Below, piece by piece: positions 17,947-45,346 of a DNA stretch of 53,620 nt (within the stretch, counting starts at the first letter, position 1; each line of letters starts with the position of its first letter). The DNA is from a virus. The translations under genes were made by a program, and so were the position numbers. Under the pieces are notes generated by a model that was not told the origin of the DNA, searched no databases, and saw only the letters and a program-made list of their open reading frames with translations. The stretch covers positions 1 through 53,620 of IMG/VR virus record IMGVR_UViG_3300045988_088394. One strand, given 5' to 3'.

Positions 17947-18167
17947 GAAATCGCACGCATTTCTTTGAGGTGCGTGCGAAATTGCGTGCTATTTGTTGCG
18001 TTTAGTTGTGATATATTGCGCAGTCTTATTTTATAGGTGCTTGATAATCAACAGTCTATTGCGTTATACCTACACAACTAAAAACAATCCGTGAGTCCTA
18101 GCTGGTCCACATGGTATGCTGATTATCAGCGACTTATGATTTATGCGTGCTAAAATGCGTGCGAAAT
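17947..18167. other. attP-like region with five copies of TGCGTGC(G/T)A (candidate integrase arm sites)
   Basis: Copies at 17951-59 (inverted), 17971-79, 17983-91, 18144-52 and 18156-64. The region lies immediately downstream of int. A 9-bp inverted repeat, TGATAATCA (18042-50) / TGATTATCA (18120-28), lies between the two clusters. Confidence 0.5.
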
Positions 18168-18179
18168 AAGCGGTTATGG

Positions 18180-19394
18180 CTACTTGTTAAATAAGTCCAT
18201 AGCCGTTTTTTTGGCTTTATCAGCTATATCAATATAAGGCTTCATGCTCTTGTAATCGGAGTGTCCAGTCCACTTCATAACGACATTGGGTGCAATTCCA
18301 AGCATTAGCGCATTGCATATAAATGTACGCCTTCCGCTGTGCGTTCCGACCATCTGCCATTTTTCTTTCGTTTCCTCTATTTTCTTTCCACCTATATAAT
18401 ATATATCTGTCAGTTTCTCGTTGATGCCGCATTGGCGGCACACCTCCTTGATATATACGTTCATTTTTTGGTTGGAGATGACAGGGAGAGCCTTGTCTGT
18501 ATCGTTGTCCGCATAACGCTGTAAGATTGTGCGAGAGTAGTTGTTAAGCTCTATTGTAATCTTGTCATTAGTCTTTTGCGTGGTTATGTGTATCGCGTCA
18601 TCGTATATGTCTGTCTTTCTAAGTGCGGCTGCATCGGAATAACGCAATGAAGTAAAACAGCAAAAGCAAAATATATCACGAGTGCGCGAAAGGTAAGGGT
18701 ACTCAAATGTGTGATTGTATACCTTCATCAGTTCCTCCCATGTAAGAAATACCACATTGCGGTTGGCACGCTTTAGGTGTGTTTTCTGTGCAGTAAAGGA
18801 GATGTCAGTTAATAAGCCCTTGGCCACAAGCCAGCGGAAGAACCACTTGGACATTGACAGCTTCTTCTTGGTCGTTTCGTTTTGGTGGCCGAGGTCTGTT
18901 TGGAATACTGCAAACCTGTCAAGTGTTTCGGGATTGATTCTTTCTATGCTCATATCGTCATCGAACATCTTCCATTCTTGCAGTAGCTTCCTGTGCTTGT
19001 ATATTACGCTCTTGCCCCAATGGCACAATTTGCCTTGTTCGTTGATATAGTCCTCGTACAAATCAAAGAAGCCTTCATTTTGTGCAGTTTTCTTTTCTCT
19101 CTTAAACTCCTTGTCAAGCGCAGCCTTGAAGTCCTCTGTTGTAGGCGACTCCTTGAATGAGTTGGCAACGGATTGTATTGTCTCCTCATACCTCTGTACC
19201 TCCGCATTTATCTTAATTGCAGGTGTAAAGCTCTTTCCGTGAGTTGTGTTGCGCTTGCACCGCTGCATGGCCATATCCCATTTGCTCTTGTCAACATGGA
19301 ACCCGAGCGAATAAGAGAATTTACGCTTGTTGTAAGTGATGAACACGCGGAGAGAGCCGCGCGCATCAACTGCAAATGTGTATACGTATTTCAT
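18180..19394 (-). CDS. int: Tyrosine recombinase / phage integrase (Bacteroidales type)
   Basis: 404 aa. The C-terminal catalytic region carries ..HSGRRTFICNALMLGI..VMKWTGHSDYKSMKPYIDI (R, H-x-x-R, H, Y pattern). The N-terminal region looks like an arm-binding/SAM-like domain. Confidence 0.85.
   Translation of the reverse strand: MKYVYTFAVDARGSLRVFITYNKRKFSYSLGFHVDKSKWDMAMQRCKRNTTHGKSFTPAIKINAEVQRYEETIQSVANSFKESPTTEDFKAALDKEFKREKKTAQNEGFFDLYEDYINEQGKLCHWGKSVIYKHRKLLQEWKMFDDDMSIERINPETLDRFAVFQTDLGHQNETTKKKLSMSKWFFRWLVAKGLLTDISFTAQKTHLKRANRNVVFLTWEELMKVYNHTFEYPYLSRTRDIFCFCCFTSLRYSDAAALRKTDIYDDAIHITTQKTNDKITIELNNYSRTILQRYADNDTDKALPVISNQKMNVYIKEVCRQCGINEKLTDIYYIGGKKIEETKEKWQMVGTHSGRRTFICNALMLGIAPNVVMKWTGHSDYKSMKPYIDIADKAKKTAMDLFNK
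19357..19394 (-). repeat. 38-bp direct repeat, copy A (true 5' end of int)
   Basis: CCGCGCGCATCAACTGCAAATGTGTATACGTATTTCAT. 37 of 38 nt match 20299..20336. Confidence 0.9.
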
Positions 19395-20413: not shown

Positions 20414-21190
20414 TCAATCTCCGAACTTCATCGAATAGACCACTCTGTACAGCCTTATGACTTTTGATTTCGGCACATTTTGATTCTCGAATACGCTGTC
20501 TTCGTTAATCCTCCTGCACTCGTAGTAATCTCCTCGGTCGTATATCCGTCTGAACAAGAACCCGAAATCACTTGTATCAACGACCATTGCAGCACCTTGC
20601 ACAATGTCCGAATTGCTTTTCATGTGTTCAAGTGCGAGGACTTCTCCGAGTTTGTATTCGGGCTGCATCGCGTCTTGCCGAATTGTATAGTAGAAGTCAA
20701 TAGATGTGTAGGGCGGTATAGTTGGAATGTATTGCAGTTTCAGCGTCTTGTCCTCCTTAATCGCAGAATACACGTCTGTATCAGGCTGTGTGGCGAGCTG
20801 CTTCGTAACGACTGGCTTATATATGATTTCTTTGTGCTTATCGTTTTCATTTTTCTCTCGCGTGCGCGTGCGCGCGTTCGTAATAGTCATATTGTTGTTT
20901 TCGCTGGCGTTATCTCCATAGGTGTTGTTTCTCGCTATGTTGGTTGTAGATTGGTCGCGAAGCATCTCGCCTTCTCCAGTTAGGAGCCAGTCTGTATCGA
21001 ATTTTTCAGAAAAAGCGGCATTAAATCTAATAAGGAATCTGTCAGTAAGAACCTTTTCGACTCCTTTCAGCGCACTGCATACATTCGATTGTGATGCGCC
21101 TATTTTATCTGCTAAGTCCTTCTGCGTGTGAATAGCACCTATACTTCTTAGATAGTCAAATGCTGACTTAAATCTTTGTTGCTTGTTCAT
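20414..21190 (-). CDS. cI-like repressor: N-terminal HTH plus an S24 peptidase-like C-terminal domain
   Basis: HTH at HTQKDLADKIGASQSNVCSALKG. The C-terminal fold-like pattern is RQDAMQPEYKLGEVLAL..GFLFRRI..RLYRVVY. It is divergent from the early operon. Confidence 0.7.
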   Translation of the reverse strand: MNKQQRFKSAFDYLRSIGAIHTQKDLADKIGASQSNVCSALKGVEKVLTDRFLIRFNAAFSEKFDTDWLLTGEGEMLRDQSTTNIARNNTYGDNASENNNMTITNARTRTREKNENDKHKEIIYKPVVTKQLATQPDTDVYSAIKEDKTLKLQYIPTIPPYTSIDFYYTIRQDAMQPEYKLGEVLALEHMKSNSDIVQGAAMVVDTSDFGFLFRRIYDRGDYYECRRINEDSVFENQNVPKSKVIRLYRVVYSMKFGD

Positions 21191-21275
21191 TGTTTGTATA
21201 AGAAGAATTATTATTAAAACATACTAAAATAGAAACTATTCTTGTTATTTTCTTGTTTGTAAGAATTTTTCTTTT

Positions 21276-21313
21276 TATCTTTGCAACGCAAATAAGAAAT
21301 AAAGTAACAAACA
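21276..21313 (+). promoter_or_regulatory. Conserved promoter-leader cassette, copy 2 (early operon, divergent from the repressor)
   Basis: TATCTTTGCAACGCAAATAAGAAATAAAGTAACAAACA. Its TAnnTTTG box starts 65 nt upstream of ATG 21341, and the cassette ends 27 nt before that ATG. Confidence 0.6.
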
Positions 21314-21340: not shown

Positions 21341-21727
21341 ATGAAAACAATATACAAGAAAGATATAAAGGCCATGGTAAAAAAATTCGGCCTTGACGAG
21401 TTCGAAGCTCGCGAGGTTGAGATAATGGCCGAGAGCATCAACGAAGAAAAAGGAGAAATATGCGATGCTATTCAATCGCCCCTCCTCTACGGAACTTCTT
21501 GTAAAACTGAAATGAGTGCTGTTAGCGCGCTCATCGTTTACTTCGGGAAGAAAGTAAACGAAGAAAACAAGTTGCAAGAAACAACTTGGAAGCTTGCAAA
21601 ACTTCTAAAATGTAGCTCTTACCACTTACAACAGTGGTTCAAGGGGTTCGCTTGCAACAAGAACCGTTTTGGACAGTTTGTAGAATGTTCTGACACATAC
21701 GGACTTAATTATTTGGAAATCGCATAA
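21341..21727 (+). CDS. Early protein, function unknown
   Basis: 128 aa. First gene downstream of the promoter cassette that is divergent from the repressor. Confidence 0.55.
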   Translation: MKTIYKKDIKAMVKKFGLDEFEAREVEIMAESINEEKGEICDAIQSPLLYGTSCKTEMSAVSALIVYFGKKVNEENKLQETTWKLAKLLKCSSYHLQQWFKGFACNKNRFGQFVECSDTYGLNYLEIA

Positions 21728-21823
21728 GAATTGCCCATGAGTGCAAAGTGTTGCATTTAACTCGCCAACTCAAAAGTCAAGCAGCCAAGGCGAGGGGCTG
21801 GCAGCTCGGAAAGACGGGCAAAC

Positions 21824-21966
21824 GCAGGTGATAGGCCGTTAATCGGATAGACGGCAGAAGATAGTACATTGAACTCGCTACCATTACGATGCTGGATAGC
21901 CCTTTGTAGCGCGTTCGGTCTTGCGAAACGTTAGGACATTAGCTGGTTCGACTCCAGCCGCCTGCA
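21824..21966 (+). ncRNA. tmRNA-like / tRNA-like structured RNA candidate (143 nt)
   Basis: 7-bp acceptor pairing between GCAGGTG (21824-30) and CGCCTGC (21959-65). T-arm GCTGG-TTCGACT-CCAGC at 21942-58, with an unpaired A at 21966. GGAC at 21934-37 and GGATAGACGG at 21845-54 resemble the tmRNA tRNA-like domain. It lies in a 270-nt ORF-free gap. Confidence 0.4.
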
Positions 21967-21999
21967 CTGAAACTAATATACAACTAAAAGAATAAAGGT

Positions 22000-22209
22000 A
22001 TGACAGACATCTTAATGACAGAGAACGAGAAACGCAGATACGAACGTCAAAAGCGTGTAGTATGCTCGTTCTTGGAGCTAAAACAAAAATACCCGACAGC
22101 CGCAAAATGGCGACTTATGCAGGTAATATCTAAAAATGAGAACATCTCGACTCAAGCAGTAAGAAATATGCTGCTTAAAAAAGGAATTGTAACTAAAAGA
22201 ATACGATGA
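22000..22209 (+). CDS. Small basic early protein
   Basis: 69-aa ORF in tight packing. Confidence 0.5.
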   Translation: MTDILMTENEKRRYERQKRVVCSFLELKQKYPTAAKWRLMQVISKNENISTQAVRNMLLKKGIVTKRIR

Positions 22210-33244: not shown

Positions 33245-33376
33245 TTAGCAACAGACATACCCCACTTACCAACCTCATAATTTTTTCACTTCATAAATAT
33301 AATGGTTTTGTTTAGTTGGATTTGTTTTTAATTGCCCGAGGTCGGGTAACACTCGGTCCGTGTCCGAGGTGGGGTA

Positions 33377-33460
33377 CAAAATGTACCGTGACTGAATGTA
33401 GCCACGGTACTTGATTGAGACATCGGAAGTTTGTCTCGGAGGTGTAATCTCCAATAGAAA
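33377..33460 (-). ncRNA. Candidate small RNA (about 85 nt, three hairpins, U-rich tail)
   Basis: Minus strand: GGAG-attacac-CTCC, GAGACA-aacttccga-TGTCTC, then GTACCGTG-gctacattcagt-CACGGTAC followed by ATTTTG. It is preceded by the TACTTTTG box. Confidence 0.35.
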
Positions 33461-33466
33461 TCATTG

Positions 33467-33474
33467 CAAAAGTA
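33467..33474 (-). promoter_or_regulatory. TAnnTTTG -7 box (TACTTTTG on the minus strand)
   Basis: Reverse complement of CAAAAGTA. It points into the hairpin-rich region 33377-33460. Confidence 0.35.
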
Positions 33475-33613
33475 CGAAAAGCAACAATAAGCCCTCTCTG
33501 CAACGCCACAATTTTAATAACTTAATACTAAAGGATTGATTTTTAATAGGTGCAGTGGTGTCGGCAGCACGTGGTTCGTGGCCACGGAGGGCGCAATTTT
33601 AATTAGAGATAAT

Positions 33614-33781
33614 ATGACTACGAAACAAGTTATTCATGCCCTGCACCTGCACCAGAAATGGCGCAGAGGGGCAATAAGCGAGATGCCATTAACGGCAAAG
33701 GAATATGGACAAGCCCTGGACGAGGCTATAAGACTATTACGGCAATATGACAAACAGCAAGAAAACGGGGCAATGCGGTGA
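33614..33781 (+). CDS. Small hypothetical protein (55 aa)
   Basis: I chose ATG 33614 within ORF 33536..33781. The upstream part is a structured non-coding leader. Confidence 0.4.
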   Translation: MTTKQVIHALHLHQKWRRGAISEMPLTAKEYGQALDEAIRLLRQYDKQQENGAMR

Positions 33782-45297: not shown

Positions 45298-45346
45298 TAG
45301 GTGTGAGGGGAATCGAACCCCTCACGCTGCCTTTCCAGCTCACCTT
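45298..45346 (-). other. tRNA 3'-half-like sequence (variable-arm-like hairpin, perfect T-arm, acceptor 3' strand) with no matching 5' half
   Basis: Minus strand: AAGGTGA GCTG-gaaagg-CAGC GTG AGGGG-TTCGATT-CCCCT CACACCT A. No AGGTGTG partner lies within 100 nt. Confidence 0.35.

Follow-up and report, generated by a model that had tools for sequence, protein, structure and literature searches.

A candidate anticodon-less transfer RNA mimic among the early genes of a temperate gut phage of Bacteroides type

Introduction

What kind of RNA, if any, is encoded in a gap between two early phage genes whose ends can fold into the acceptor stem and T arm of a transfer RNA (tRNA) and whose interior offers no anticodon arm? 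We address this question for an element at positions 21824-21966 (plus strand) of the IMG/VR virus record IMGVR_UViG_3300045988_088394, analysed over its whole stretch of 53,620 nt (positions 1 to 53,620; hereafter the window). An initial annotation, made from the sequence of the window, had described a discrete tRNA-like RNA that is not a tRNA, had likened it to a miniature transfer-messenger RNA (tmRNA) and had named an attachment-site (att) fragment as the finding that would speak against an RNA gene. Comparison with relatives supports the reading as a tRNA mimic and refutes, by sequence criteria, the one as a miniature tmRNA. The element is very probably a gene for a structured, tRNA-like RNA belonging to a new family. 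The best explanation overall, to which we give a probability of roughly 0.55, is that it specifies a 143-nt non-coding, anticodon-less tRNA mimic that is co-transcribed with the early genes and would be excised from their transcript.

Results

The element in the window

The gap between the open reading frames (ORFs) at 21341-21727 and 22000-22209 had been described as free of ORFs, and we found there only trivial ORFs of at most 35 aa, with the exception of a mechanical 73-aa TTG ORF on the opposite strand (21884-22105). The sequence features pointed out there by the initial annotation are all present: an acceptor stem paired 7 of 7 with one G-U, a T arm and an unpaired A behind it, the arm GCCGT/ACGGC (21835-21855) in place of the D arm, GGAC ahead of the T arm (21934-21937) and, as sequence, a frame running from GCT to TAG (21877-21909). 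When the window was searched with R1, a covariance model of the core, with filters off, 21824-21966 was the only strong match and the runner-up scored 19.9 bits, which makes the element single-copy. Its parts are listed here; the subfamilies and alignments named are described below.

21824-21966, plus strand: whole tRNA-like RNA gene, 143 nt, from the 5' end of the acceptor to the discriminator (R1, 148.4 bits)
21824-21830, plus strand: 5' strand of the acceptor stem, GCAGGTG, pairing 7 of 7 with 21959-21965, one pair being U·G
21831-21834, plus strand: connector ATAG, 4 nt, invariant in alignments A1 and A2 and kept in subfamilies I and J
21835-21855, plus strand: D-like arm, stem GCCGT/ACGGC, loop TAATCGGATAG with a GG doublet
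21856-21869, plus strand: 5' joining segment AGAAGATAGTACAT, predicted single-stranded (unpaired in the RNAalifold consensus and in the minimum-free-energy fold)
21870-21917, plus strand: central hairpin H1, in the place of the anticodon and variable arms; GAAC (21871-21874) pairs with GTTC (21913-21916) and CGCTAC (21876-21881) with GTAGCG (21906-21911)
21918-21941, plus strand: 3' joining segment, ending in a conserved ACATTA (21936-21941) that abuts the T stem
21942-21958, plus strand: T arm GCTGG-TTCGACT-CCAGC, abutting the 3' strand of the acceptor
21959-21965, plus strand: 3' strand of the acceptor stem, CGCCTGC, pairing with 21824-21830
21966-21967, plus strand: discriminator A21966, followed by C

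The U·G pair of the acceptor is due to G21960, a position at which most relatives have an A (U-A). Against an expectation of 0.06, the window has two occurrences of the T-loop motif GGTTCGANTCC. The fold of the single sequence is ordinary, with z = -0.8 for 201 nt and z = -2.1 for the exact 143-nt element, and the case therefore rests on comparison.

Relatives and core fold

Relatives were retrieved by pattern scans (the 3' 22-mer, the D-loop region, a D-loop…T-loop pattern and ATAGGNNGTTAATCGGATAGNCNGC), and R1 then picked up more divergent copies without any bait sequence. They lie on about 90 contigs from IMG/VR and metagenomes, almost all from the human gut, often as two diverged copies per phage, and amount to 55 distinct elements of 74-147 nt in about 10 subfamilies; locus L025, a chance pattern match, was dropped.

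Subfamily A (that of the window): 143-147 nt
Subfamily B: 143-147 nt
Subfamily C: 131-143 nt, acceptor GAGGAGT/ACTCCTC
Subfamily C-short: 91 nt, preceding every C copy by about 110 nt
Subfamily D: 144 nt
Subfamily E: 85 nt
Subfamily F: 74 nt
Subfamily G: 84 nt
Subfamily H: 135 nt, acceptor CGCAGGG/CCCTGCG
Subfamily I: 76 nt, preceding B copies by about 560 nt, found by the model
Subfamily J: 81 nt, adjoining H, found by the model

The core helices are conserved as pairings rather than as letters. In the model-based alignment (61 hits, 55 distinct), which was fitted to R1 and so leans toward the model, 99.2% of the cells in the acceptor, D and T helices pair, compared with 34-51% when the partners are slid by 1-3 columns; compensatory double changes occur in 14 of 17 pairs, and all seven acceptor pairs covary. 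An unfitted MAFFT alignment of 15 representatives agrees with the fitted one on these helices: 98.8% of their cells are paired (35-49% in the slid controls), both sides have changed in 11 of 17 pairs, and the observed covariation score is reached by none of 500 shuffles. RNAalifold also recovers the three helices. Covariation thus favours the acceptor, D-like and T stems named in the initial annotation.

The acceptor variants include those given above for subfamilies C and H as well as TCTGGTG/CACCAGA. The D helix is paired in 100% of cells in the MAFFT alignment (A2) and in 99.3% in the model-based one (A3), with U-A alternating with U·G and changes on both sides in four of five pairs once subfamilies I, J and C-short are included. 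Such changes are seen in three of the five T-helix pairs (GTGGG/CCCAC, GGGAG/CTCCC, GCGAG/CTCGC). The T loop reads TTCGA[ACT]T, or TTCAACT in subfamily H and some C-short copies, so that the D-loop GG and the T-loop TTC[G/A]A are kept throughout the family. Directly 5' of the T stem, C[A/G]TTA is found in all subfamilies, and even the model-found I and J retain it together with the connector ATAG and the D-loop sequence GGATA[G/T]. On the plus strand of the model-based alignment at least 54 cells are G·U, against 8 non-standard cells, and this excess indicates that the plus strand is the folded one, as RNA.

The limits of the element follow from the comparison of subfamilies A and B, whose similarity starts at G21824 (G1) and stops just after the discriminator at 21966, with unrelated flanks on either side. 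Since the similarity is confined to the span between the acceptor-stem ends, these are the ends of a discrete unit, and the proposal of a discrete tRNA-like RNA is borne out by its boundaries as well as by stems that are conserved and covary in 55 distinct relatives. The discriminator is A in most members and G or C in some, being A/G polymorphic among near-identical members of subfamily B. The base that follows it is C in 13 of 13 element/tail classes, and a full CCA is encoded in subfamilies B and F.

As a separate observation, hairpins with a conserved 16-nt loop, GGTTCGYGAKRAATAG, stand just 5' of elements of subfamilies C, C-short and D (L013 8037-8052, minus strand; L019 7561-7576 and 7683-7698, plus strand; and 31 other loci). 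The loop has no exact copy elsewhere in the 92 loci fetched and none in the window.

Central domain

The segment between the D and T arms spans 17-81 nt across the family (27-81 nt outside subfamily F). In the window it measures 81 nt and contains one supported hairpin, H1, for which 25 sequences of subfamilies A, B and D show one pair as AT, TA, CG and TG and others as AT/GT or CG/TG. Subfamilies C and H have different hairpins at the H1 site, and in C a natural deletion leaves the lower stem paired; E, G and C-short have 27-33 nt in this domain, and F has a 17-nt linker only and no hairpin. Because the central hairpins differ or are missing among subfamilies, there is no anticodon arm, and the invariant part corresponds to the 'top half plus elbow' of a tRNA.

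The hairpin CGTTCG/CGAAACG, proposed earlier for the interior, does not conflict with the data, although its formation would take up the GTTC that the base of H1 needs, and almost no informative variation bears on it. Two further pairings were considered and rejected. A pseudoknot GAAGA/TCTTG, joining the 5' joining segment to 21920-21924 and suggested by the comparison of L001 with the window, is not kept in L006, L007 and L044, and a second minimum-free-energy hairpin (21918-21937) is not kept in relatives, by inspection of the aligned sequences.

With a canonical tRNA (RF00005), class II included, the element shares the covarying 7-bp acceptor and 5-bp T helices, the D arm with its GG, a T arm with TTCGANT, the nucleotides of the D/T elbow, the discriminator and, in some members, CCA; its D loop AATCGGATAG resembles those of class II tRNAs. 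It differs in that the anticodon arm is replaced by the variable domain of 17-81 nt, which is why it is not a tRNA, and in the 4-nt connector at the junction of acceptor and D stems, where tRNAs have 2 nt. No conserved anticodon loop and no 7-nt loop with U33 was found in the central domain of the family. ARAGORN reported 0 tRNA and 0 tmRNA genes in the whole window, and Rfam at gathering thresholds gave no match there. The initial annotation had denied that this is a tRNA, and with ARAGORN and the Rfam tRNA model both negative and a variable domain in place of the anticodon arm, we concur.

Standard tRNA, tmRNA and Rfam searches miss nearly all of the family, although ARAGORN flags one short paralogue as 'tRNA-???'. 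Neither megablast nor blastn, run also with a 42-nt core query and E values up to 10, turned up a GenBank or cultured phage sharing DNA with the region, so the suggested comparison with related phage genomes yielded no match in GenBank. That no family of this architecture had been described agrees with these negative results, and the family is new in that we found no description of it in the literature; it may overlap with unnamed candidates of a 2023 survey of viral structured RNAs.

Some 1.5 kb upstream of B elements, ARAGORN also reports a 71-nt 'tRNA-???' whose anticodon, cagg, has four bases (L008 798-868, plus strand; L009 10342-10412, minus; L012 507-577, plus; L029 4175-4245, minus).

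The tmRNA and attachment-site readings

The resemblance that had suggested a miniature tmRNA, an alanine-charged tRNA-like domain with a short tag frame acting in ribosome rescue, is genuine in outline. Like tmRNA (RF00023), the element has a 7-bp acceptor closed by distant ends, a canonical T arm, a GG-bearing analogue of the D loop and a big insert replacing the anticodon arm; GGATAGACGG is loosely like the tmRNA 5' motif, and in a permissive Rfam scan of 21650-22100, which returned one irrelevant match besides, the only weak match of the tmRNA model is the element (12.2 bits, E = 0.006 in a 451-nt search). This score, however, lies far under the gathering score of 47, and the match is confined to the T arm and the 3' acceptor strand (21911-21969). 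ARAGORN makes no tmRNA call, so that neither it nor Rfam at gathering score, two of the checks named in the initial annotation, recognises a tmRNA or a tRNA. Pair 3-70, which as a G·U wobble would mark alanine identity, is never G·U among the 55 distinct sequences (AU 36, GC 15, UA 3, CG 1; A3-U70 in the window), and a covarying 5-bp D stem is present, whereas tmRNAs, to our knowledge, have none. The element also falls short in length (74-147 nt across the family against the roughly 350 nt that the initial annotation gives for a normal tmRNA), and no pseudoknots were found, the one candidate proposed being inconsistent among relatives.

The 10-codon tag frame fares no better, because its length shifts among close relatives between 3, 7, 10, 19 and at least 30 codons (peptides AIR, AISIDAG and ATITMLDSPL, and stop-free versions of 19 or at least 30 codons) and it is absent in other subfamilies. 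Its stop TAG is one strand of the covarying helix H1 and becomes TGG where the helix tolerates U·G. A supposed second copy of the tmRNA-like 5' motif at 21794-21820 belongs to a leader that only subfamily A has:

21731-21823, plus strand: 5' leader, conserved in subfamily A only, with GGGGCTG..GACGGGCA at 21794-21820 and the palindrome TGCAA-AGTG-TTGCA at 21743-21756

The leader is kept in L004, L006 and L007 despite a different upstream gene, and in subfamilies B, C and D unrelated sequence replaces it up to G21824. It also carries a stem CTCGCC/GGCGAG (fold z = -1.9 for 21731-21823), and the window holds no second, operator-like copy of the palindrome. By these sequence criteria the reading as a miniature tmRNA is refuted, and we leave it only the slightest chance.

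A T arm joined to a 3' acceptor strand is also the look of att cores in tRNA genes, and the element might accordingly be the 3' end of a host tRNA or ssrA gene serving as an integration core, or a dead tRNA gene with an insertion. A scan of 185,579 species genomes with the exact 22-mer GGTTCGACTCCAGCCGCCTGCA from its 3' end found no Bacteroidota genome and a single match, in a Kofleriaceae metagenome-assembled genome (MAG) and inside a tRNA array. The true attP core lies elsewhere: CCTAGCTGGTCCACA at 18097-18111 (plus strand), directly downstream of the integrase gene, is identical to the final 15 nt of the host tRNA-Met gene at the junction of the sister prophage L003 (L003 8942-9016, minus strand), and the homology between the window and L003 ends inside that tRNA-Met gene, with the junction mapping to 18094-18111 of the window. 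The element stands 3.7 kb away, in the early operon, and its 5' half is conserved and covaries with its 3' half in about 10 subfamilies under structural selection. The alternative that the initial annotation had itself raised against an RNA gene is thereby refuted on the evidence of the 22-mer scan and the mapped attP, and we accord it next to no weight.

The Kofleriaceae sequence deserves mention for itself. It is a 120-nt tRNA-like stretch of JAWKQV010000032.1 (L005 7053-7173, plus strand) that ARAGORN does not call, set within an array of 16 tRNA genes. Its 3'-terminal 26 nt match the window element exactly; the ATAG and D-arm signature is missing, and R1 scores the stretch at 16 bits.

Genomic context and transcription

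The window is a temperate Bacteroides-type gut phage or prophage, and the element lies in its early rightward operon. The features that set this context are the following.

18180-19394, minus strand: Bacteroidetes-type tyrosine integrase, facing the early rightward operon together with a KilA-N regulator and the S24 repressor
20414-21190, minus strand: S24 repressor
21256-21283, plus strand: putative early rightward promoter, TTTG-16 nt-TATCTTTG, upstream of the 128-aa gene

In the operon, the element stands between the 128-aa gene and a 69-aa gene; genes for RecT, a YqaJ exonuclease and a Lin1244-type replication protein also belong to it. Genes for a terminase, an SPP1-type portal and a capsid are found further along the window, and the terminase shares 38-40% identity with its counterparts in phages of Bacteroides uniformis, caccae and ovatus.

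The site at 21256-21283 is probably the early promoter, judged by what we take to be the Bacteroides consensus: its motif at 21276 is the only TAnnTTTG on the plus strand between 20.9 and 22.4 kb. No Bacteroides-type -7 motif was found within 250 nt upstream of the element in any subfamily, and no terminator-like site between the element and the next gene. The RNA thus appears to have neither promoter nor terminator of its own and to be co-transcribed with the early genes. Within 3 kb of the elements, co-oriented ORF sequence amounts to 127 kb and ORF sequence of opposite orientation to 55 kb, and the elements are intergenic, none being inside an ORF of at least 90 aa. Two elements separate different ORFs of one operon in subfamily B phages, and in subfamily C two stand in tandem with no ORF between. 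A protein family common to the neighbourhoods of all subfamilies was not found, an absence that we count toward a host partner.

Two other places in the window resemble parts of the element. In an ORF-poor region at about 33245-33615, 33258-33376 (plus strand) has an 8-bp closing stem ACCCCAC.../...GTGGGGT with a T-arm-like CTCGG-TCCGTGT-CCGAG before its 3' strand and more hairpins following; with 19.9 bits from R1 and a fold z of -2.3, it could represent a further structured RNA upstream of the late genes. At about 45300-45330 (minus strand), the hairpin GTGAGGGG-TTCGATT-CCCCTCAC has a perfect T loop and contains the second GGTTCGANTCC of the window; ARAGORN finds no tRNA there, and R1 matches the arm only (9.3 bits). 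Among the relatives, long near-perfect inverted repeats of AATGTGC-like units (L013 699-829 and 2216-2332) give rise to spurious Rfam microRNA matches.

Known tRNA-like systems

Beyond tRNA and tmRNA, several RNAs invite comparison. The C4 RNA of P1/P7 and the CI RNA of P4 are likewise tRNA-shaped small RNAs of temperate phages from an immunity or early region, and they are freed from a longer transcript by RNase P. The element differs from them in its canonical T loop and acceptor and in the CCA encoded in some subfamilies, and it has no Rfam match and no detectable target sites. The two ends of YrlA come together in a Ro-binding helix and not in an acceptor stem; the terminal helix of the element is a plain 7-bp acceptor stem, and the Rfam scan gave no match. 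YrlA, a bacterial Y RNA-like non-coding RNA, has a domain that mimics the D/T elbow of tRNA, and such RNAs are reported to be widespread in bacteria (PMC4201824).

The closest architectural analogue that could be checked is T4 species 1 RNA (rnaC), a small stable phage RNA of 139 nt whose role is unknown and which is encoded in the T4 tRNA cluster (PMC3014915). Its T arm CCGGG-UUCGAAU-CCCGG directly precedes a 3' strand in partial pairing with the 5' end; a large structured central domain is present, and the RNA is co-transcribed with other genes (PMC3014915). There is no sequence relationship, however: R1 matches only the T arm of rnaC (11.6 bits), the acceptor is imperfect (5 of 7 in our reading), the ATAG, D-arm and CATTA signature is lacking, and the gene sits in the tRNA array of a lytic coliphage. 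tmRNA, tRNA, C4/CI and YrlA share parts of the design with the element, and each fails, or was not fully tested on, its defining features.

Discussion

Taken together, these results lead us to prefer the reading of the element as an anticodon-less tRNA mimic, which would work as follows. The RNA would copy the part of a tRNA that is read by processing enzymes, namely a 7-bp acceptor on a 5-bp T stem, the elbow and the discriminator; the T loop would dock on the GG-containing D loop to form that elbow, and a lineage-specific domain would take the place of the anticodon and variable arms. Host RNase P would cut 5' of G21824, and the 3' end would be trimmed after A21966 and completed to CCA, so that excision would both free a stable tRNA mimic and sever the early mRNA. 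We lean toward excision by the tRNA-maturation machinery at somewhat better than even odds. The freed RNA would then act by mimicry, occupying a host factor that reads tRNA shape and the acceptor end but not the anticodon, a tRNA-directed defence enzyme for example. Such a decoy for a tRNA-recognising host factor is our leading guess, and a tentative one. The existence of the 74-nt subfamily F, with just a 17-nt linker between D and T arms, suggests to us that the core and not the cargo matters.

A broader claim, more speculative still, is that temperate phages of gut Bacteroidales might carry a large family of such decoys, expressed at the start of the lytic cycle and matured by the host. It is equally conjectural that these would leave decoding undisturbed while neutralising factors that read the elbow and the acceptor end (defence nucleases directed at tRNA, or nucleotidyltransferases, for instance), and that the variable central domain and the paired diverged copies might mirror an arms race over the tRNA class mimicked.

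Several points weigh against the preferred reading or narrow it. By itself, the single sequence is of ordinary thermodynamic stability (z about -2). One very large sample (3300045988) contributed many of the sequences, which means that the independent evolutionary events are fewer than the cell counts suggest. The D-loop sequence served as retrieval bait, which makes its invariance partly circular, and only the model-found subfamilies I and J are free of this effect. We infer RNase P cleavage, 3' trimming and CCA addition from shape only, and the target of a decoy is hypothetical. Finally, the acceptor pairs vary freely and the discriminator is A/G polymorphic, so recognition by one specific synthetase is unlikely; the same pattern would also fit a structural processing signal.

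That last possibility leads to the main rival of the tRNA mimic, a purely cis-acting 'tRNA punctuation' or stability element, whose fold would do no more than make RNase P and 3' enzymes cut the early polycistronic mRNA, or shield the new ends, the excised RNA having no function of its own. Such a role would suit an element that is always intergenic, co-oriented with its neighbours and promoterless, that in subfamily B phages comes in pairs separating ORFs of one operon, and whose central domain is dispensable (subfamily F) while the acceptor sequence and discriminator vary freely. It accounts less well for the retention of ATAG, GGATA[G/T] and C[A/G]TTA while all stems are rewritten, for the tandem elements of subfamily C with no ORF to separate, and for central hairpins upheld by compensatory changes and, in subfamily C, by a pairing-preserving deletion, since a minimal cleavage signal needs none. 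On balance we regard punctuation without further function as rather unlikely.

Two other functions seem improbable to us. An antisense or immunity RNA in the manner of P1/P7 C4 or P4 CI would be cut by RNase P and pair through its loops to sites on the operon transcript, and the genomic logic, a tRNA-like shape without terminator in the immunity or early region of a temperate phage, is the one that C4 and CI have. Yet no Rfam C4-family model matches 21650-22100 at E values up to 10, the window contains no complementary site of at least 12 nt, and exact complements of at least 10 nt are at chance level there. An ungapped scan for Watson-Crick and G·U pairing between the central domain and 2.5 kb of flank on each side, in 8 subfamilies, gave best runs within the shuffle distribution, a scan that leaves room for short seeds; we hold this role to be quite improbable. 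A little less credible again is an aminoacylatable carrier: a minimal tRNA that a synthetase insensitive to the anticodon, LeuRS for instance, would charge for a purpose other than decoding or for binding EF-Tu. In its favour are a D loop reminiscent of class II tRNAs and a discriminator that is A in most members, and tRNA-Leu constructs without anticodon and variable arms are reportedly still charged in vitro. A charged RNA is hard to reconcile with a discriminator that varies among A, G and C and switches between A and G even in near-identical members of subfamily B, and with an acceptor in which no pair is fixed and G3·U70 does not occur.

One complementarity was noted between paired elements: in the B element at L008 2381-2525, the segment AUUGAACUCGCUA is a perfect 13-nt complement of the 5' half of the T arm of its partner element I (about 1797). 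It is probably due to chance, since 8 of 60 shuffles match as well.

Known cases of viral tRNA mimicry are few: the tRNA-like 3' ends of plant viruses, the tRNA-like RNAs of herpesviruses, the immunity RNAs of P1 and P4, and the unexplained RNAs C and D of T4. To these, the family described here adds about 10 subfamilies of tRNA mimics of 74-147 nt in prophages of a dominant human gut bacterial group, genes that currently go unmarked in genome annotation whichever function they turn out to have. Its 74-nt member marks the part of tRNA that is copied, the acceptor/T minihelix together with the D/T elbow, and offers a handle on what reads this shape in Bacteroides. If the RNAs are decoys, they would represent an RNA-based counter-measure in the tRNA-centred conflicts between phages and bacteria; if they act as punctuation, they would provide a parallel, in bacterial viruses, to the tRNA punctuation of mitochondria.

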